From NCBI GenBank assembly GCA_050084985.1, contig JBITNC010000001.1, forward strand, positions 198,214,001 to 198,278,000: 64,000 bases of DNA. Direction: 5' to 3'. A program made the position numbers and the translations under genes. Below are positions 2,948 through 26,037 of the stretch, in pieces. The notes beneath the pieces were generated by a model that was not told the origin of the DNA, did no database searches, and was given only the letters and a program-made list of their open reading frames with translations. Positions within the stretch are counted from its first letter, which is position 1. Each line of letters opens with the position of its first letter. This DNA comes from Nageia nagi (taxonomy: Eukaryota; Plantae; Pinophyta).

Positions 2948-3125
2948 CATGCTAACAGTAAAGCTATGAAGAAACTCATAAACGATCATTGGATAGTGAT
3001 CAATGAATTTAACTAAAATTAGATGATAAAGAAAAGGCCATGCTAACAGTAAGTTATGGAAAGCTCATAAAAAATCACTGCATACTGACCAACGAATTTT
3101 ACTACCATTTGATGATAAGGAAGGT
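2948..3125. repeat. Old tandem duplication, 2 copies of ~91 bp
   Basis: catgctaacagtaa...gatgataa(a/g)gaa starts at both 2948 and 3039, with diverged interiors. Confidence 0.75.
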
Positions 3126-3497
3126 GATGATGATGATACTAAAACTAAGATGATTTTTGACAAGTCCATGTAAAAGGAAGCTGGAGGATAACCTGGGAAA
3201 TCCAAGATATGAAACCTCAATTTCTATACAAAAGGGCAAACATAAGAAGAATGCCCAGTGAGATGTTCTACAATCTGTGCCATAGAAACTCATGAAATAA
3301 GTGATTACACATGGCATTTGAAGAATGAACCAAAGAAACAACAGCAAGCCTTTTTAACACAGTCCACAAAAAGTGTTTGTTACAAAAGAAATATAACTAT
3401 GATATCCAACAGCAACATGGCTCTTGTAAAAAGGGACAACAATGGATGATCTATGTGGGCAGTATCAAAAATCTAATTGGAGGGGTCATTTTGCTAG

Positions 3498-13366: not shown

Positions 13367-13821
13367 CCAAGCCTAAACCTAACTCTCCCTTTTGTTGACG
13401 TGTATTTCTTTTCCCCACACAGGAAAGGACACCGTCGATGAGTGGTGTAGCATTACTTACCCCCGCTTGAAAGGACTTTAACCCCAAGGTTTCTTCAAAT
13501 TATTATGGGCTTTAGGTTTTTGGTATAACACCTTTTAAGCAATGGTGGTTGATAGTCGACAAGATAGCTTCAGGGGAGGTATGTGCTTGGGGATGGTTAC
13601 TCACAATTATGCGGACCTATTAGGCTTTATCTCAATCAATGTTCACGTGGAAGCACACAAAGCAAAGGGAATATAAAGTGGGATACGAAAGATTTAACAA
13701 TTGAAAGAAGGATAAGTGATAGGGTCTCATTGTTGTGCAAGGTTTGAAGCTTTCATCTCTCAGATTTATTAGGAACTTCTACTAAGGTTATCAAGCATGG
13801 GAGGAAGCAACTGAGTTTGGA

Positions 13822-14960
13822 TGTAATGATATCAGCAAATTCAATTACAATCAAGTCAAACTAAGACATCCAATATGTAAATACAAACCCTATTATGCTA
13901 ACGTTGCATCTTCCTAACACATACACACCTCACAATGCCAACGATAGGCCAGAAACACAATATACAACACAATAATGCTCAACTCATGCACACAAGGAAC
14001 AATATGAACACAAAGTTGAGATCCAAATGAGCCCATGGCTTGTATTATGATCAACAATGAAGTACAATACAAAATATGCCCAAAGGGCTGATGTTAGCCT
14101 CCTGGAAGCTGAACTAGACGAACTATGGGACAGCAGTGCCTCCTCACAATTTGACTCCTCCCCATCGAAGGGGCCCTCCTCAGATCTGGATAACCACTCG
14201 CGTGGTAGAGACTCCGCCTCAGATCCACCGAATGGGCAATGGTGCTCCCCCAATTACTGTAGATTGTCAAGTTCCTTGTGCTTGCCAACCCCCTTAGGTG
14301 CTTCACCTATGGAATACACTTAGCACTCCACTAAAATTGTGTCCACCGGACGATGTAGAAGTGTAAGAGTAATAATAATCAAGTGCGTCCAACAAATGAG
14401 CCTCCAAGTCTTCTTATACTCTCAACCAGGTCCTAGATCTCACCTCGGAATCATCACTAGACTCTAAGGCCCTAACGTTAGCCTCCAAAGGGCCCGAGAT
14501 GCCCAACGTGGGTACCTAGGTATCAAGCATGCCAACGTGGGATTCTTGGGTGCCATAAATGCCAACACAAGGTCAAGGGATGCCACGCATGCCCATGTGG
14601 GTCTAGGTGCCATGCGTGGGAGCCTAGGTGTCTGTAATGGGCCAACATGGGGTCTAAGGGACTCCCCAAGGCTGGCGCAAGCATGCAATCCTCAATCCTG
14701 GTTAATTAATGTATACAAGCTCTTGGGATTCCCACAATCAAGTCCGAGATCTCCAAGTACATTAATATCTCCTATTCTTCACTTGGGAGGGAAATGTGCC
14801 ACTAGGGGCTCATAGTGGGGTCCATGGACCAATTAATTCTTATCCCAAGTTATACAAAACAATTACAAGATAACTTTTAAATAAACTCCAAAAGGAATGT
14901 TATTAAGATGTCCTTTTTGGCTCTTACATTATTTTTATATAGTACAAAAGGGATGTTACA
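13822..14960 (-). mobile_element. Solo LTR G (1139 bp) nested in E
   Basis: TGTAATGAT...GATGTTACA termini (TGTAACATCCC start on the minus strand), TSD ttgga/tagga, ~30 bp AACGTGGG subrepeats at 14470-14660; homologous to 3950-5079. Confidence 0.75.
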
Positions 14961-15745
14961 TAGGATCACTTCCAAGCGAGAGCACGGGGCAGTAGTTAGG
15001 GTGGACAAAGGGGTGAAGTGAAATATTCAATTATCTACGTCCCAATAGATAATTCCAACCAAATGTCATAAGAGTAAAGTAATTCAAAATACCACAACTT
15101 TATGCAAACCATAGAAACGGTCATTCATACATTTAAGAAAGACATTCAAATATATTTTCCTAAAGTACGAGACTTTCAAAGAAAATGCTTGTAAATGCAT
15201 AAACAACACAACAACATCATCATGTCATTTACATATCTATGATTCCATGAAATGAGAAACTGCACTTGCATTTAAAACAAAGTTTTCCAAAATGATAGAT
15301 CATACACACATTTAGAAACTTCAACTCCAAAGTGCTTTTCAAAAGATTTGCATTCAACTCAAAGAAAGACTATTAGGAAACATGCAACTTTTCATACATC
15401 AGAGGATTCTTGGTCTATCTATCTATATCTCTTTCTTTCTATTCTCCTCCCTCTCTTTCTCAAAAATGACCTAGCTAGGGTACTTATAGCATATGTCTAA
15501 CAAATTCATTAAATGAAGCGTCGCCCTAATATTAATTGCAGTGTTGCCCTAAACAACAAAACAACGCTAATACTACTTTGAAAAACATAAACCATCAACA
15601 AAGCAAAACTACGGCTACACAATACCACTCGAATGTCACATCACATCAAGTCTTCTTGCAGCTATGGGAGCAAAAACTCATTCGTCACAGCGTAAGTTAA
15701 AATAATAATTATCTTGAACTGAAAAATAAAATATGCATTTATCAA

Positions 15746-18700
15746 TCAACCCTTTGTAGGACCGGAAGCTAAACCGCAAGCAACATCAAAGACATCCTTG
15801 GAAATCCTATGGGACTTGTCATCAAAGAAAGCCCTAGCCTTGGAGAGCCCTATAGCAAGTACCCCTGCCAAGTCGTTATCCTTCTTGTTATGAAAATCCA
15901 AGATGTACTAAGAAGTGCATTCCATTTGGAATTTCCAAACGAGCAAATGTTGTTGATTCTCGATGTGTCCCTCCCCCAATAGGTTTACGTCCTTGGTAAA
16001 GATAAGCTCTCGGATGGTATTTTGAACTTCTTAAATCACGAGCTCAACTCTCCTCGCACTACTGTCTTCATTCATAAACCTGATTGGTTGCACAAACTGG
16101 CTCATCTAGAAGGTTAAGATAAACAACAAATTGGTCCTAGCCTTGGTCAAATTGTCACTTTCCCCTATTGCAAACCTTAGCCAACGCAGATGGTAGGCAA
16201 ATTCTTGGCAGAATTGTATCCTGCCTGCTTGTCCTGCTAACATTATTTTCAGATTCTAGATGGTTTGCTCATGGTTCTGAAAACCCTGCAGAAACTAGGA
16301 AATGGTTGCATTTGTGTTTTATTCTGCTTTCCACTCATCTGTGAGGGCAATCAATCAAAGTGAGAGCCATTGACCAAGGTCTCTTTGGTAATGGTGATAC
16401 CAATGTTCAGGGAGGCCTGTAATTTAATGTCTTCATGGACATTTTAGCGATTTCTATTTCCTTTACCAATTTATTTTTACCAACCACCTCCTTTATTGTA
16501 TTCTTCCTCTCGATACCTTGGTTGACCATCTCATCCACATTATAGTTAATGGCATGTTTGCGCCTAGCCCATCCAATCTTCTTAACTTTGAATTCTTCGA
16601 TATGGACCCGCAAATATTGAAGATCCTGTGGATGTTTCTTTTTTGAGTAGCACTTGTTGATGGTCATCGTGTCTTTTTTCATAGACATTAAAGTGTCGAG
16701 TTATTCGATGGGGGATTCCTTGGAGGCACTTTTCCTCTTCTTGCTAGATTCTTCATCATCACTGTGATAGCTCATTCGCAGATCCTTGATGACTACATCA
16801 ATATCAAAATTATATTTCTTTTGCGGACCAGAACTTTATGCAATATTAGCCAAGGTGGTATCTGTATTAGTGTGAGTGGAGTCTTTGGGGGTCTCCTCGA
16901 TTCTTAGCTGTTGGTTCTTAACATCATCCAGCTTATCTTTGATCCTTAATGGTTTGTTGCTGCCATGTTCCAGTTGCTTCTTTTTCTTCCTTTGCTCTTC
17001 ATCTTCACCGTTTCTTCCTCATCTCCACTACTCCCTGTTGCCGAGGTTTTGCTCAGCTTTGAGGGTTTGTCGAGGGTCATCTTGGGTGCTTCTTTCTTAG
17101 GAGATGACCATCGCTCCCTCCTCGGAGTAGTGGATTCAAAAGAAGCAACTTGCTTCTCAGATGCTGATCCAGTTGGTAAAGTTTCATTGGCTACTTCGGC
17201 TTCAGACTCTCCATCAACGTCCACAATCTGGGTGTCTCCCGTATCGAGCTGCGAGTCTTTGTCATCCTCATGTCCCCTTACTATTTCTCCTTCTCCTGAA
17301 TCAGACTCGGATGGACTAGAGGATTCGAAGGATGTCTTGGAATTTGAGGACAAACTAGAATGATGAGGCGAATTAGGCCCTTCTAGCTGATTTACAGCAA
17401 GTGCTTTGCTCTTATGTGTGAGCCTCCACCTCAATAGGTTCAGGAAACTTAACTTCTACATGATATTCTATGGTTGTCAAGAGATTAGGGATGGCCAAGG
17501 GATTTTTAGCCCTGACCGACATTATAGGCATTATAGGGACATCCTTTGGGGTAGCATCCTCGAGTTGTTGCAATGGAAAATCAGGGTACCTAGTTTCAGC
17601 TATAATATGGACATCTTGGTAATTTCTTTCACAACAGAATGGATTTCTGGTAGAGAGTTGCCTTAGGTAGCATGCTCGCCTACCCGCCCTTGGCATCTCC
17701 TCACTCTTGTTGAAGAGGTAGATTTCTCACCTGGAGCCGCTTGGGATTTGTCTAGATTTTGGATTCTTCGATCAATCCAGCCTTCTGCTGCCAACACTTG
17801 ATGTACCTCCTGAATTTGCTTATCATCTCTTTTATTCATGTATCTCTCCTTGTCTCCTAGAGACCTGTGATCATAAATTATTGGGTTTCTAAAGGTTCTT
17901 CTGTAGAAGACCTGAATTTGCCCTTCAGGATCATAATGAGAAGCTGCCTGCTCCTCGGAGAAGTGATAATAAGACAACTTCGTCCTCATCTCCTTGGCCT
18001 CCTGCCAAGTTGAACAAGTATATTCCTCGATGGAAATGGGGAGGTTTCTTGTGGCATTCTTTTTTTCCATATATTTTCGTGTAGAAACAGCAATTGCTTG
18101 CAAAATTCCATGAGAATTAACCGATTATTAGCATGGCGAGGCAAGAGATATGGCCTGAACTCATAACCGTAGACCCGAATATATGTATATGAGGGGTCAT
18201 CTAAGAACTAATCCACATGCCCCCAGATGGCTTCTACAGAAGAATATGATATCCTTTTCACCATTTGCCTTCCCTTTATCTCCTTGTATATTTGGTATTC
18301 CCATCCGAATCGCATAATGATCCCACCTGGATTCCAACCACCATTTGGGATAAGCCTTCCATGTAGGTTTCGTTGGATCATTCAAATGTTTTGTATCTAC
18401 ATGGGCCGACTTTCTATTTTTGCCATGGAGAAGGAGATTGACAAGATATGAATTCATGTGGAACCTCTTCGAAGAGCCAATATGAGCCAATTGATAGAGG
18501 GGGGAATCGTTGATTATTTTTCTCCATCAGATCCTTTGCCTATTCCCAATTACAACAATGAAACCGATGAATTCCTTTTTGAACTTGAGGTTGTCCTCTT
18601 TACTGGTGACCCAAGACAACATACTGATAATCATTGAGACAATGGGATAGAAATGTTGTCTCTTTGCGTTAATTAATTTATTCCCAATGAATTCTTTGCT

Positions 18701-19204
18701 TTCGTTCTCGAGCCAATCTTGGATGAGATCTCCAGCTCGTTGAGATTTCTCGTAATAATCCAGGGAATCCTTTTCGGTGTAGATGACCCCTTCGTTACTC
18801 CAAACGAAAGCCTACTCGATGCCCTCCGAGGAGAAATTGAGGATCTTATTGCCATCTGTGTCATAAAGAGCATGAGTTTTGTAGTTGGCATGCTTACCAA
18901 CTTCGTAACAAGGCTTGGGGAAAGGTGTGGCAAACAAGATAATGGTGGCCATGGCCAATCCGAAGGTACAAATGACTTCATTAAGCATTTGATTCTTTTC
19001 TAAACTGTTGATGGATTGCAAAGTCCAACTGGGATCAGTATGTGACTAGTAAGTATCCCGAATATTGGAGAGATTATTCTTGAACTTGGCTTCTTTCAAG
19101 GGATCTTTGGGGTTCTCCTTGGTGAATTTGATCCGAGTGGGTTCAGTCAACCTTGCTAGCTGAAGCTCTCAAGTCTTTCTCAATTTGGAGTTTATCTTTG
19201 ACAT
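15746..19204 (-). pseudogene. Degenerate ~1150-codon accessory ORF inside element E (globular N-terminal domain, S/E/D-rich linker with basic patches, helical C-terminus)
   Basis: ATG at 19204 (MSKINSKLRK) follows a TTTGTTTTATAG acceptor-like site. Collinear ORF fragments at 19021-18812, 18490-18197 (FHMNSYLVNLLL), YIRVYGYEFRPYLLPRHANNRLILMEF near 18190-18100, 18103-17663, 17434-16946 and 16688-16407, ending ...GLASGPTKG* at 15746. No RT, IN or PR motifs. Confidence 0.75.
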
Positions 19205-19484
19205 CTTGATCCTATAAAACAAATCAAGCTAGTGTGGATTGGACTAACTGATGAACACAATGGAATGGTACGAGTGGGACGAGTATGGTGTATAATGCCT
19301 AGCAATCCTGTATGCCATTTGAGATGAAGAAGATGGTGTACCAATGCAAGTGAGACTTGAGACTTAATGCTTATGACAAAAGGTGGTCAATTTCCTTGCA
19401 TGCAACGTCCACAATATGAGCCTCAAACAATTAATGCATATGCACATCTTTAGCTCATGAGACCCATGTGAATGCATGAAAGCT

Positions 19485-20989
19485 TGGTCGCACCTTTCAA
19501 GAATGTTAGCTTTTCATCTTAGATGGATGATACGACCAGACATGAAGGTTAACCTTATGGGACGTGACCAAAATGAAGGGACAACGTACAAACACAAATA
19601 ATAGACGACTAACTAAATAAAACTAAATTTGGGTGAGCATCTAAGTGTGGGACCCCTTCCTAAAAATGAGACTTCTTTGATGCATGCACGGAAAATCCAA
19701 GACAAAGATGCAAATATGACTCATATGGATCGTGCGACCATGCAACTTTGATTAAACTTGCAATTCCAATGGGCACAGTGTTTTCAAAAGACGGATCCTT
19801 ATCTTCTTGAGACTTTGCGACCATGCATCCTTAAGATGGCCGTTGCAAAATGAAGCCAATGCAAATTTTAATGACTAAAAAAAAGCTGGCCAATAAATGT
19901 GGGCCGTTTGACTTTAATGCAAAAAAGGTTGTCACATACTCCAAGAAGGGTGCAAATGTGACTTAGTAAAACCATGCGACTAGCCCTAGGAAGGGGAAGG
20001 GATTTGCAAAATTGACCAAGTCCTCTACTCTTATAGCCATTTTGATTGCCAGGTGGTAACACTTTAAGTGTCAAATGAAGGATTTTCAACAAGTGTCCAA
20101 TCCCATGCAAAATATTGTGGTCACACCTCTCCCAAAAGATGCAAATGTATCTCCTTCAAACCATGCGACCATGGATAGGGGTCCCAAAGGCCAACACTTA
20201 GTCAAAACAAAGAAAAAAAAAGGAGGTGGTCGCATGGTTCCCAAAAGATGCAAATATAAACTTTTCAAACCATGTGACCAACAAGAAAAGTCCCAAAATG
20301 GACAACTTTAACCAATCTTCGGCCCAAGAGTGCAAAAAGGGGTGTTCGTGCCCTTTTCAAAGATAGAAGTACAACTTTTCCTAACCAGGCGAACAGCCTT
20401 TAAAGGTATAAGCTAACGCTTAGCTGAATTCTAAAGACCAAAACATAGGAATGGGGTGGTCGCACCCTAAGAAGAAGATGAAATTGTAACTTTTGCCAAC
20501 CATGTGACCACCTTGGAGCAACACATTGGACCAGCTGAAGTAAAAATAAAATTACTCTACTTACTTTTATATTGGCCTATCATGCCACGTGTCCACTGCC
20601 GAATGGCTAGAATGGAGATCGAATGAGATCATGAAGGTCAAAATGGGGGTGGTCGCATGTCTCCCAAAAGATGCAAATGTAACCCTTGGAAATCATGCGA
20701 CCAACTTGAAGGATGGATTTAAAGCATGCTTAGCCAATTTATAGGCTCAAAATTGTATTGAAGGGGTGGTTGCACCTTTTCTAAAAGATGGAAAGGTGAC
20801 TTTTTAAAACTGTGCGACCACCTTTGACTTAACAGATTTCCAACCTTTTGCTTTAGTCTCTTGCCTTTTTATAGACCATTTCAGGTGCCAAGCGTTATCA
20901 AAGGGGCAGTTATTTTAGAGGGAAAGTAAGGATTATGATTGCAACCTTAAAAATAGACAAAAATATATCCTCCCTTAGCCACACGATCA
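19485..20989. repeat. Array of ~11 inverted-ended 54 bp units (TGGTCGCA-N38-TGCGACCA) in the U3 of E
   Basis: Units at 19485-19538, 19929-19982, 20118-20171, 20227-20280, 20343-20395, 20457-20510, 20650-20703, 20767-20820 and 20936-20989, plus partial units ending at 19740 and 19823. Shared core AAAGATGCAAATGT. Confidence 0.85.
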
Positions 20990-23460
20990 CCACTTTTGAT
21001 GTGAAAATTTGGTGATTTTGCATGAAACATGATTGGACCATCATCCGACACCTGCATTTCCTTCGTTTTCTTACTTGCATGGATACCTAAAAAGCATTCT
21101 TTCATTTGTTGTAAGCAAGTATTCTGGGTGAATTTTAAAGTTGCACTTCGAGCTCACCTAGCTAGCTTATCTTCATTATGCTCCGAAAAGTGGTTCTCCC
21201 AAAGCTCAATTCTTGCTAAGTTCCATTGTCATCCTTTGATTGAGGGTCCCCAAATTTGTAAAAAATTAGGGGGGTGTTGCTTTGTCAACACCTTCCAAGG
21301 AAATCCTCAACCACAAGAGTACACTCCCACAAACTCTTCCAAGAAAAAAGAAAATTCCCCTATCACTTGCACCTATGTGGGAAGAGTCATGCAACACCAA
21401 AATGTTGGAAGAAATTACAAGACTTAGAAGATGCCAAGAAGAAACACAAAATTGATGTTCATAGCAACGCCATTAATGTTCAAGGAAAATACACTAAGTC
21501 TTGTTCTGAAACTTGGGTTTTCGATTTTGAAGCTACCCACAATATGACTCCTTCAAAGGAGTCCTTTACCTCACTTGGTTTGAGTTCCACATCCAGTATT
21601 GAGGTTGGTGATTCCTCTTTCATTCCCGTACGAGGGAAAGGTTATATTCTTATCAATGGTGGCCGAATCAATGATGTTTTATATATGTCATATATTTTTG
21701 CTAGTCTCCTTTTTATCTACCAAATTTGCAATTATGGGAAGAGAAAGACAGTTTTGTTCACTCCTCATGGAGTTGAGATTAAAAGTTTGTTGGAGCCTCA
21801 ATCGCTTATAACACAAGGGGTTGTTGATCATAGTGCTAGCCTTTATCACTTTGAAGGCTTTGATGACACTTCTTCAAGTGCATGCCTTGTTGAAATTTTG
21901 GTATGAATGGTTTGGTCATCTTAACTACAAATATTTGAAAGAATTGAGCACTCATGACATGGTAATTGGCTTGCCTAAGGTGTCTTGTCCTGATGGTGTT
22001 TGTCCTGGTTGTACACTTAGGAAACAACATCAAGATCCTTTTCCCAAAGGTATGTCACATAGAGCTTTTGCACCCTTGGAGTTACTTTATAGTGATTTGA
22101 TGGTTTTCCATCATCCCTCGTTTAATGGAGCTAAGTATGCATTTTTTCTCAAGTACAAAAGTGTTGTTTTCTCTCACTTCAAAGTCTTCAACACTTTGGT
22201 TGAGAATCAAACTTCTTCGTGTATCAAGAAGCTTCACGCAGATAATGATGGTGAGTACTTCAGTATTGAGTTTTCAGACTTCTTGGCTACACATGGGATT
22301 ATTCATCAACATTTTGTCCCACACACACCCTGTTGGGTGTTTTTCTTTCCTAACCTGGAGTAGTGAAAAAAAAACGGGCCAACACCTCAGGTGAAGGGAC
22401 ATTACTCCCTCCTGCTATGGGGACTGGTTACCCCAAAGGTTAGCTTCACGACTTATGTGAAAATAACCTAGGGGACGGCTGAGATGTTTAAAGCTACAAC
22501 CAACATGAATATCATCTATGGATTCAAGGGACTCTGAGTTCTACGTTTGGGCTTCAATTAGGCTGTTTCTGAAAAATGCTGAAAAGGGAAATCGGGGGTG
22601 CAAAGACCTTGGAAAAAATGTGTAAAATAAAATAAAATAAAACAAAGAAAAATGGTGGAAAGACCATGAGCAATCGGATGCGATGTAGGTATACAAACTC
22701 ACAGGCTTGAGACAAGTCCTTGAAAGTCGACTCACTTGGGCTCGTTGCACATTCCAAGCACCCACTATCCAATCCACTAGCCAACAACACGAATAGCTTA
22801 GTGAACAGAGCGTTAAGCCATGGCAAAGAGACAAGGCGGGACAGGGGTAGAACGGAAGGACCTAGGTGAAGTTCCTACGGTGAGCAACATTAGTGAGACA
22901 TTCCAAGGTAACCCAGCCTAAACTGCAAATAGTGAGGTACCATCAACAAGATGTCAATCAATCACTTCGCAAGATATCCAAGCAATCTCTTGTCCACTTC
23001 AATGAAATTTACAAGCTGCACCAAGTAAATCAGATTAACACCAAGCAATGATAGAACAAAACACTGATAGCACTATCAATCATTCATTCATATTCACTAT
23101 TCCAACATGAGCAAGCATCTAGATCACAATAGCATCCACATACACCACATTTAACAATTAAGAGAAATTTTGGTTTGCAAGCAAAAGTTCTTCCAATTGA
23201 TAAATTGTCAATCCCCCTACAAATGAATCAAAATAGGGTATAAATAGTCTTAGGAGCAAACAAAAGCATTGCCCTAACCTTAATCAAGAAATAAAGTGCG
23301 GTCCAACATAAATACGCCACTTGGCATTACAAAGTCTCTTCCAAAACTGTGGGAGCGAATCTTCATCCTTCACAAGTTTGGGAATAAAACAATATTTAGA
23401 AATGTCTTTGCTAGAAAATAAGACTTTTGAAACATAAATTAAAATAATTTAAAATATCAT

Positions 23461-23940
23461 CTAGGCCAATGGTGGGCCCAAGCCTGCAACTCGATCCTCG
23501 AAGCTATCAGCTAAGAATCTCGCCATGAGCTCTAATCCGCGCAACATCTCCGAGAACTTCAGCATGCTCACAGCAACAATGTCCTCAACCTCGTCCACCA
23601 ACTTCTACATCTCAACCTTCCACGTGTGAGCTTGCAGCATATGCCTCAAGTGACTCCTAGACTAGTAGGAGTTTACGTCCTCCGTCAAAATCAAGCTATG
23701 AAGATGTCTAACCTCTATCACTACTACATCAGCGTCCCAAATGGTGGTGTCCTCCAAGAAAGGAACTAGAAAATCCATCTACTCAATGCATGAGTGGGCC
23801 TTGTTGTTGATCATGGCCACCTCCTTCTTAGTCCCCTGAAAACGAGTGAGCACTTGATTGATCACACCCCAGTAGAACCAATAGTCCTCACAAAACTTAA
23901 CATCCTCGAGTCTTTGAGCTTGTGTTGAATTTCATGCCCA
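23461..23940 (-). pseudogene. ORF remnant inside solo LTR F, homologous to the C-terminus of the ORF in E
   Basis: Manual translation VINQVLTRFQGTKKEVAMINNKAH...VVVIEVRHLHSLILTEDVNSY*SRSHLRHMLQAHTWKVEM*KLVDEVED...AGLGPPLA*. One frame with three internal TAG codons. Confidence 0.65.
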
Positions 23941-23979
23941 TCTGGCCATGACCAAACGTGGGGGGTTCCGGAGACCCTC

Positions 23980-24955
23980 AGGCTTGGCACATGGCCAAAA
24001 AAGACAAGATTTTGTCTTTCTGGATCATGCGCCAGCCTTGGGGATGAATGTACTCCCCACATTGGCCTTCCTTGCTCTTTGCTCATTCAACTTGACCTTG
24101 AAGCCCATCCCGAGACCTAATCTTGCCTGGTTCTTGCTCTTTCAGGGCCCAAGCTCGTCAATTTCGCCCTTTAAGCTCAACCGAGACGCTCCCCAAGCTT
24201 GGCACATGGTTTAAAAAGTCATGTTTTTGTCTTTTCAAATCATGCACCCATCCCTCCAGCCTTCCTAGTTTGGGCACATGGTCTAGAAAGTCAAGATTGT
24301 CTTTTTGGGGAATGTGCTAGGTTGCAGGTGACCAAATTTGCTTCGTCTTGGTCTTCTGCTCCTGGGACTTAGCCAAATTTTCAAGTTCACTGTGTTCTGG
24401 TGTCTTCTAAGGCTTGGCGCATGCTCCCAAAAGTCAAAATTTTTTCTTTTTAAGGCATGCGTCAACCCCTTTGGTCATGCTGGAGCTGGATCCAAGCTTC
24501 GAAACTCCATGCCTTAGCCAATTTTCACATTTCAGCTCAATTGAATGCCTTCCTAGGCTTGGCTCATGCTCCTAAAAGACAAAATTTTGTCTTTTTGAGG
24601 CATCATCCAGCCTCCTGGGTGAGTGTACTTTGATCTTCTGAGTCTCAAGTTCATCCTACCGACCTCTTGGCTTGGGTGCATGCTTCCAAAAGACAATTTT
24701 ATTTCTTTTTGGGGCATGCACCAACCTTGAAATGTTTGAAGTCAGTTTTTTAGAGCCTCCATTCCGTCTTGGGCATCTTTCTTAGCCTAGCACATGCCCT
24801 AGAAAGACGATCTTGTCTTTTCATGGCATGTGCCGAGTTCAGGAGTGACCCAATTTGTACTTCCAAACTTGAACTTTGAATGAGGCGTCATCTTGGCCCA
24901 AGCACACATCCCAGAATGACACAATTTTGTCTTCCTAAACCATGCACCAAGCCTG
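23980..24955. repeat. Array of 8 hairpin-type 48-50 bp units in the U3 of F
   Basis: TGGCACATG..AAAAGAC-loop-GTCTTTT..CATG(C/T)GCCA units start near 23985, 24200, 24272, 24415, 24560, 24674, 24788 and 24900, separated by variable spacers. Confidence 0.85.
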
Positions 24956-26037
24956 CGAGTGGCCCAGATTCGCCTTGCTTAGTTTCTACTTGACTCAAGT
25001 TTCCCAGTTTCACCTAAACTTGACTTAGATTCCCCAGACTTAGCCATTTTTTGAGGGTCTTAGCTCTTCAACATGACACGACCAAGACTGGGTGGTTGAC
25101 TACACTTAGGTGATGGGATGATAGGCATGATTTTGAGTCAATTGAAGATGGGGAGAATCTGTACTGACTAGGTGCCAAGCAAGTGTAAATTGCAGAGGGT
25201 CCCCAAAATTGCGAAATTTTGGGGCAAGTTGTGTAGGGCACAACACACCCCAGCAAAATGGTCTAGCAAAGAGGAAAAACTATAGTTTGAAAGAGGTGGC
25301 AAATTGCATGATGCACTATAGGGATTTACCAACCATTTTTTGGCTGAGGCTATTAATTGTGCAAACTATATTCAGAATCACACACCCCATAGAGCTCTTC
25401 ATCACATGACTCCTGAAGAAGCTTGGTCTAGAACTAAGTCGGATGTCTCCTTTTTCAGAGTTTTCGGAAGTCATGCTTGGGCACATATTTAGAAGAAGAA
25501 AAGAAAGGCCAACCACTCATTTTTGTTGGCTATTGTGAGGATATGAAGGCTTATCATCTTGTTGATCCTACTACACATGATGTCTTACACTTGATGTTTC
25601 TCCTAATCCACCACTTGTTGATCTAATTTCGAACTCTTCTAATGCAAAGTCTACTATTGAGGATCTTCCACCAGTTGCCACTATGCCTTAGTGGGCCCAC
25701 ACTACAATTGAGAGGCAACCCCTTTCATTCAAGATCTTCCACCTTCCATGCAAATTCTCTCATCAGGCACTGGTCTTGTTTTTCAAACAGTCTCAAGTGA
25801 TCCACAGTCGTTTTCATAGGCTCATGGGATACTAAACTAGAATGATGCTATGGTAGCAAAGTATTCTTCTTTGATGAAGAATAAAACTTGGGATCGTGTT
25901 CCTCTTCCTCAAGGAAGAAAGATGGTTTGATATAAATGGGTGTATTGAACCAAGTATGCCGCAAATGGCTCCATTGACAAGTACAAAGCCCATCTAGTTG
26001 CTAAGGATTTTTCTTAGATTGAAGGTATTAACTACAC

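Follow-up and report, generated by a model that had tools for sequence, protein, structure and literature searches.

In this study, we observed that two insertions in one decayed Ty1/copia element of Nageia nagi, here called E and F, carry homologous stretches of a protein-coding gene. Judged from alignments with related copies, this common tail is the C-terminal end of a gene of ~1,100 codons and not a small stand-alone open reading frame (ORF). We tentatively read E and F as solo LTRs of one old Ty3/gypsy lineage, likely of the Tat/Athila type, with a very long LTR that holds the gene, likely in U3, the common segment forming a predicted helical C-terminal domain. Taken whole, this reading stands a little below an even chance. 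That the units are LTRs at all is probable and, given LTR identity, a sense ORF lying in U3 is fairly likely. Genes of this kind are known; what is unusual is a location inside an LTR.

Table 1. Features of elements E and F and of their insertion target, in positions of the window.
Feature	Position	Strand	Remarks
Decayed Ty1/copia gag-pol, insertion target of E and F	21291..22330	+	Extends beyond 13393 on the left and 25245 on the right
Element E, single TG...CA unit	13393..21290	-	~6.75 kb minus nested insertion; duplication CCTTT/CCTTC
Nested TG...CA insertion within E, unrelated	13822..14960		1.14 kb; flanks TTGGA/TAGGA, 4/5 alike
TATA-like motif of E, CTATAAGTACCC, then TCATTT and GA-rich tract	15478..15489	-	Putative promoter
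E ORF tail, homologous to that of F	15746..16294	-	HMM match 16294-15815; stop 15748-15746
Full-length gene remnant of E	15746..19204	-	~1,150 codons; stops and frameshifts; N-terminal globular region, acidic linker, predicted helical tail; start 19204 placed from alignment position
E array, dispersed palindromic sub-repeats	19450..20830		Family D5, 6 copies; folding z -4.7 and -5.2 for two units
Element F, single TG...CA unit	22331..25245	-	2,915 bp; duplication CACCC/CACCC at 22326-22330 and 25246-25250
Telo-box-like TTAGGG of F, then TATA-like motif CTATTTATACCC (TATAAATA on plus strand)	23236..23277		Both motifs, equal spacing, in L001, L003 and L004; putative promoter, strand presumed
F ORF tail, last ~155 codons	23461..23935	-	HMM match 23931-23467; 3 internal in-frame stops in matched part; terminal stop 23463-23461
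F array, dispersed palindromic sub-repeats	23976..24960		55-75 bp; families D10, D11, I2, I5; folding z -2.8 to -4.0 for three units

Two insertions with a common gene tail

The window, the whole stretch of 64,000 nucleotides that was analysed, consists of decayed plant LTR retrotransposons nested in one another. The copia stretch was recognised by its Pfam matches (Pol_BBD, 3.6e-9; gag_pre-integrase, 4.2e-8; rve), and its frames resume past both insertions, the gag region across E and the integrase frame across F, so that E and F interrupt one and the same element. The target duplications are 5 bp long, with 5/5 identical positions in F and 4/5 in E. Together with the TG...CA ends, these duplications and the clean interruption of the copia frames speak for the solo-LTR reading. 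The ends of the two units are also mutually homologous: the alignment score was reached by 1/1,000 shuffles for the 5' ends and by 0/1,000 for the 3' ends, as well as by 0/1,000 for the stretch between stop codon and TATA-like motif. Neither unit repeats its own ends, which points the same way; no internal direct repeat was detected in E or F, and alignments of the ends with the rest scored like shuffles. From the TG...CA ends, the duplications and the lack of internally repeated ends, each unit can be regarded as a single integrase-type insertion without a second LTR. Both units are likely solo LTRs, F with a deletion in its interior. No gag-pol family was detected by Pfam in the frames of E and F that were scanned.

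Both tail peptides quoted in the original prediction, which had claimed a second unit of solo-LTR type with a homologous ORF tail, are present on the minus strand of the window. Their local alignment scored 62 (BLOSUM62), a value reached by 0/20,000 shuffles (mean 27.8, maximum 61), and of the 1,536 six-frame tiles made from the window, that of E was the best non-self match of F, the next, unrelated tile scoring 54. Decisive was an HMM built from 29 database relatives, E and F being left out. It matched F with an E-value of 8.6e-71 and element E with 2.4e-14 over 160 positions, and its three further matches in the window all had E-values above 1. On this alignment evidence the homology of the tails is real, and the claim is confirmed. 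The low pairwise identity and the best shuffle of 61 against 62 could have pointed to a chance match, but the independent profile and a tblastn match of the N-terminal 500 residues of E to the F-family gene (E-value 6e-68) rule it out and leave it a negligible probability. The common region is wider than the motif first described and includes an upstream FC[EQ][DE][YF] block.

A search with the F tail, with X at the stops, gave 3 relatives among 10 candidates, and a search of 1.84 billion representatives gave 27 at E-values up to 0.001; the ten that were looked up are unnamed proteins from Logan, JGI or ENA. Among 358 candidates retrieved with the E tail, none was a longer relative.

The gene and its predicted protein

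A database copy, L008, contains nearly the whole ORF (~1,080 codons, 2625 to ~5865). The tblastn match of this copy to E has 32% identity over 516 aa (19096-17633), followed by a second one at E-value 2e-6 (16826-16410), whereas its match to F starts only at about residue 930. Thus, E retains the whole gene in broken form, and F has lost ~930 codons, everything from its sub-repeats to the tail. Upstream of the break in F, the tail family continues for ~100 residues in database copies. The encoded protein has a hydrophobic-rich N-terminal region, a linker that is first proline-rich and then acidic, and the tail.

The tail frame evolved under purifying selection. Among seven copies, dN/dS was 0.09-0.27 in 10 of 21 pairs, the other 11 being saturated at synonymous sites; these include all six pairs with E (pS 0.75-0.90, pN 0.42-0.55). 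Six pseudo-frames of the non-coding LTR end, used as a control, gave 0.59-1.27. Such selection on the tail, set against this control, supports a genuine gene within the units.

An AlphaFold model of a natural 250-residue tail copy (alignment of 30 rows) consists of long helices only. The tail is therefore predicted to be all-helical, although the model has low confidence (pLDDT 53, pTM 0.36); that of the N-terminal region, from a 3-row alignment, reached pLDDT 33 and is unusable. Both values count against the preferred reading. In the N-terminal region of L008 a match to the plant mobile domain family PMD (PF10536) was detected at 13-14 bits (E-value 0.02-0.07), far below the Pfam cut-off of 34.9 bits; E and L003, the other two copies scanned, gave none. 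This weak match favours the preferred reading, as do the helical prediction, the low hydropathy of the tail and the acidic, proline-rich linker, while its score and its presence in one of three copies weigh against it. ATHILA ORF-1 (PF03078) and Transposase_28 (PF04195) gave no match at E-values up to 1-10 in any segment scanned, and DUF1985 was likewise without a match here.

The original prediction had taken the shared motif as the mark of an unnamed conserved domain. The motif proved to be only part of a domain of ~250 residues at the end of a protein of ~1,100 residues, which is, as the searches support, unnamed as far as Pfam, PDB sequences, folds and the atlas reach. With 30 tail sequences the best Pfam E-value was 0.0097, one family appearing in 3 members and the rest in 1; nothing in the PDB fell under E-value 0.5 by sequence, and Foldseek with the tail model returned 0 matches at 0.001. 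The atlas gave no usable match by features and structure rows with TM 0.30-0.45 (by query). VIA-align found generic helical bundles only (best Z 10.3), which indicates neither a new nor a known fold, and 0/113 and 0/33 pattern matches were confirmed in viral and prokaryote collections, respectively.

Layout, polarity and parent element

Further copies were sought by scanning metagenome contigs, which confirmed 8 loci among 42 pattern matches. L004-L006 are one copy, and L002 and L007 stop short of the terminus, so that four further distinct copies (L001, L003, L004 and L008) could be compared with E and F up to the end. All four repeat the layout, showing only its 3' end. From the stop codon to the TATA-like motif we measured 214 bp in F, 230 in L001, 211 in L003, 213 in L004, 257 in E and 160 in L008; from the motif to the terminus, 916, 918, 873, 891, ~950 (range to 953) and 888 bp, respectively, the last measured through an inverted duplicate in the L008 contig. 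The distances first given for stop codon to TATA (~215-260 bp) thus hold for F and E. In all six distinct copies, 160-257 bp separate the stop from the motif that follows it and 873-953 bp the motif from the end, which argues for a lineage trait; with a frame under purifying selection, the suggestion of a conserved trait instead of a one-off rearrangement is borne out. This fixed layout also favours the preferred reading.

Upstream of the gene, both E and F contain arrays of palindromic sub-repeats. Five units were folded (z -2.8 to -5.2), and the palindromic outline is the only thing the two arrays have in common. The units are dispersed, not head-to-tail, and Tandem Repeats Finder did not report them. 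A telo-box-like TTAGGG stands ~30 bp before the TATA-like motif in F, L001, L003, L004 and L008. Read on the ORF strand from 5' to 3', the units would comprise a terminus, the palindromic array including a TATA-like site of its own, then the gene, 160-260 bp, a promoter region, ~900 bp of R/U5, and the other terminus.

The strand of the TATA-like motif bears on the claim that the ORF lies in U3, since the term depends on LTR polarity. In E the motif reads TATAAGTA on the ORF strand, where CTATAAGTACCC is followed by TCATTT and a GA tract, a usual order for an LTR promoter. In F, L001, L003, L004 and L008 it reads TATTTATA on the ORF strand and canonical TATAAATA on the opposite one, the better TATA in 5/6 copies, which counts against the preferred reading. 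Polarity is therefore ambiguous, five copies differing from E, and the ORF could be antisense in R/U5. The LTR would then lie on the plus strand of the window, with ~900 bp of U3, canonical TATAAATA, and the gene transcribed in R/U5 from a promoter of its own at the far end, like the antisense ORFs of TatIII, Ogre and Retand. We consider this arrangement a serious alternative, although an unlikely one. The motif GGG[CG]TATAAATA opposite the ORF strand in 5/6 copies favours it, as does the additional TATA-like site that E (20874) and L008 (2389) have upstream of the ORF. However, the promoter-like order in E speaks against it, as do unit ends like CACGTCAACA, which we take to be U5 ends of Tat elements. 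PMD-type extra ORFs are, on the other hand, mostly antisense, as in 431/434 Ogre matches (PMC6317226 Additional file 4). Placement in U3, as originally claimed, draws on the order seen in E, is opposed by the F-family motif, and we rate it better than even. A pyrimidine run ending in TAG was also observed just before the likely start codon (E 19204-19234, L008 2590-2627). By position in the sequence, the upstream TATA-like site and this run would suit a promoter belonging to the gene and, in E, a 5'-UTR intron spanning the sub-repeats.

F-like sequence forms a multi-copy family in three public runs, which match at 5-7% of words and yielded 4,107, 1,486 and 2,135 contigs covering 30/30 bins; no RNA run was among the matches listed. 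At the L003 terminus the summed depth drops from 1,728, 384 and 478 to 4, 1 and 0 within ten bases, and this near-zero depth right past the terminus in all three runs favours the preferred reading. No primer-binding site followed any of the four distinct database termini (0/4), no pol sequence linked to such units was recovered from the metagenome contig loci, and neither an intact element nor a polypurine tract was seen at these termini or in the 40 contigs running past the terminus (10, 17 and 13). These run-off contigs agreed at 0.42-0.47 and gave no consensus of a primer-binding site. This counts against the preferred reading and qualifies the original label: termini and target duplications fit a solo LTR, but as no intact parent or primer-binding site was seen, we use LTR for E and F in a putative sense. 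In spruce and pine, complete elements exceed solos 4-7.5 to 1 (passages of PMC5751070), and by that measure the family of E and F would need a higher share of solos.

Alternatively, E and F could be mobile units that are complete with one gene, have integrase-type ends and are moved in trans. The assembled ends, none of which shows a primer site or internal sequence, are in line with this, and the run-off contigs are mostly unrelated: in a simulation with assumed flank composition, a shared flank in 45% of contigs was unlikely (P ~0.03). However, fractions of 10-30% were allowed, and the consensuses of the three runs resemble one another more than wholly random flanks would (P 0.011, same assumption). 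Pfam scans of E and F found no encoded transposase or integrase, and the terminal inverted repeat measures only 5 bp. We therefore regard such units as improbable. From L003 3825 onward, the run-off consensus of all three runs starts with G. The likeness of the consensuses could reflect an integrase site preference, insertions common to the runs, or a minority of ends entering common internal sequence.

It is also conceivable that E and F are deletion derivatives of elements with a short LTR (~1.1 kb) and an internal sense ORF, which would only seem to lie in the LTR. The four database copies, with their 3' end only, agree with this prediction too, and F does have a large internal deletion. 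Against it, E and F have target duplications and homologous 5' ends that are unlike the 3' kilobase, no conserved polypurine tract followed by TG was found by eye between stop and motif, and parallel deletions would be required in two very divergent copies. Such an origin seems highly improbable.

In two contigs inverted self-duplicates were noticed (L008 5821-5930 against ~1900-2010; L001 3786-3890). A different architecture suggested by them was set aside: the last 110 bp of L008 recur exactly, reversed, in its own contig, and we therefore read the inversion as an amplification or assembly product.

Proposed function and known systems

Under the preferred reading of E and F as solo LTRs with the gene in U3, the arrangement may have arisen from an ordinary sense extra ORF that lay between pol and the 3' LTR: with the plus-strand start site shifted to a point upstream of it, U3 would have grown over the ORF. 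Recombination between LTRs would then leave the gene behind in each solo. We would speculate that the product is a nuclear accessory protein whose N-terminal PMD-like domain binds the palindromic sub-repeats and whose helical tail oligomerises it. The complex of protein and array might help to maintain transcription of the family, in the way that VANC proteins act for VANDAL transposons. A function as DNA-binding regulator is possible but rather doubtful. The analogy is drawn from preprint and published passages: PMD-C is similar to the VANC domain and is associated with a palindromic motif next to telo-boxes (10.1101/2024.09.27.615353, preprint; see also PMC5418596), and VANC targets form tandem repeats (PMC5735166), both of which favour the preferred reading. 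A bolder version would have the lineage move a whole 1,100-codon anti-silencing gene into its LTR, with its own promoter and bound palindromic array, giving each element two copies and making each solo a self-contained cassette that keeps the family active in trans. We hold this to be quite unlikely; if true, the main route by which the host removes such elements would become a means of spreading the gene.

Very improbable, in our estimate, is an envelope-like fusion protein with the tail as a heptad-repeat fusion bundle. At the top of the structural matches to the tail model stand engineered mimics of the gp41 and spike heptads (Z 10.3, rmsd 3.7, and Z 10.0, rmsd 5.4, respectively), but such Z values are usual for generic helical bundles and come from a model of low confidence. 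The tail lacks a convincing transmembrane stretch: maximum 19-residue hydropathy was 0.81-1.32 in five of the tail sequences, a sixth reaching 1.77 at its divergent end, and the peaks of 1.79 and 2.07 upstream of the tail are single and not common between copies (simple scale only). As far as these models reach, an envelope role would be less likely than a nuclear regulator.

Among OTA elements, extra ORFs are frequent and varied, with 314 groups in Ty3/gypsy; of all extra ORFs, 21.4% have any domain match, and LTRs of the elements surveyed reach ~5 kb (passages of PMC6317226). Reviews place such ORFs in the internal region (passages of PMC7264820, PMC11963269). Closest to the gene of E and F are the ORFs of Tat elements with PMD or PMD plus coiled coil, whose description supports the preferred reading and which in lineage III of gymnosperms stand antisense at the 3' end (passages of PMC4408406). 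Those of TatIII and Ogre (passages of PMC4408406, PMC6317226) share with E and F a large accessory ORF outside gag-pol, adjacent repeat arrays and a 5-bp target duplication, and the protein described here resembles theirs in its weak N-terminal PMD match and predicted helical C-terminus. However, they are described from between the LTRs, in most cases antisense and at the 3' end, whereas the gene of E and F lies inside a single target-duplicated unit, its PMD match is sub-threshold, and its tail matches no listed family. Gymnosperm TatII elements are up to 18 kb long, and their extra ORFs in forward orientation are nearly as frequent at the one end as at the other (23% 5', 26% 3'; REXdb, PMC6317226 Additional file 5), figures that rest on 27 elements in a table with a seemingly column-shifted Athila row. 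This symmetry would be expected of LTR-borne ORFs and hints in favour of the preferred reading. The passages of PMC6317226 do not place these ORFs in LTRs, and E and F are known without pol. Against the preferred reading, those of PMC4408406 give TatII no extra ORF and TatIII an antisense 3' one.

The antisense Transposase_28 ORFs of Retand and Grande likewise accompany tandem arrays and have a proposed regulatory role, but they lie between pol and the 3' LTR of angiosperm elements, and the gene of E and F has no Transposase_28 match (passages of PMC11963269, PMC7264820). VANC of VANDAL and the PMD-C proteins MAIL1, MAIN and MAIL2 serve as a functional model, with an element-encoded factor, family-specific repeated targets and a palindromic motif near telo-boxes (PMC5735166, 10.1101/2024.09.27.615353); they belong to DNA transposons or are host genes, whereas the gene of E and F is without a DUF1985 match and its binding is only proposed. 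Gymny of pine was rejected as a match, its ORF1 lying downstream of a putative LTR (passages of PMC2633040). In titles and abstract openings, mostly outside the subscription literature, no description of an ORF inside a plant LTR was found, and term look-ups in parts of PMC13468544, PMC13477047 and PMC11539532 gave nothing on LTR-borne ORFs.

A conserved and selected gene of 3.3 kb inside an LTR of 6-7 kb changes how such repeats are annotated. LTRs are generally treated as non-coding, and standard finders often cap LTR length below 6-7 kb; solos of this sort would be called genes or unknown repeats. Coding frames in U3 have a parallel in MMTV sag and in the overlap of HIV nef with U3; these are unrelated proteins of ~200-320 codons in animal retroviruses. 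With a candidate protein and a candidate target array together, differing between subfamilies, the units offer a concrete handle on what extra ORFs do.

The nested insertion within E is likely another solo LTR with short sub-repeats of its own, which makes three solo-like units inside 12 kb. Three long direct-repeat pairs (39725-41257/44806-46327, 46334-47330/51863-52846 and 55423-55924/63225-63729; 79-91% identity) probably represent paired LTRs of three old elements, of which the first two adjoin. By eye, the L001 copy also lies within a frame resembling copia gag (3063-3474), like E.
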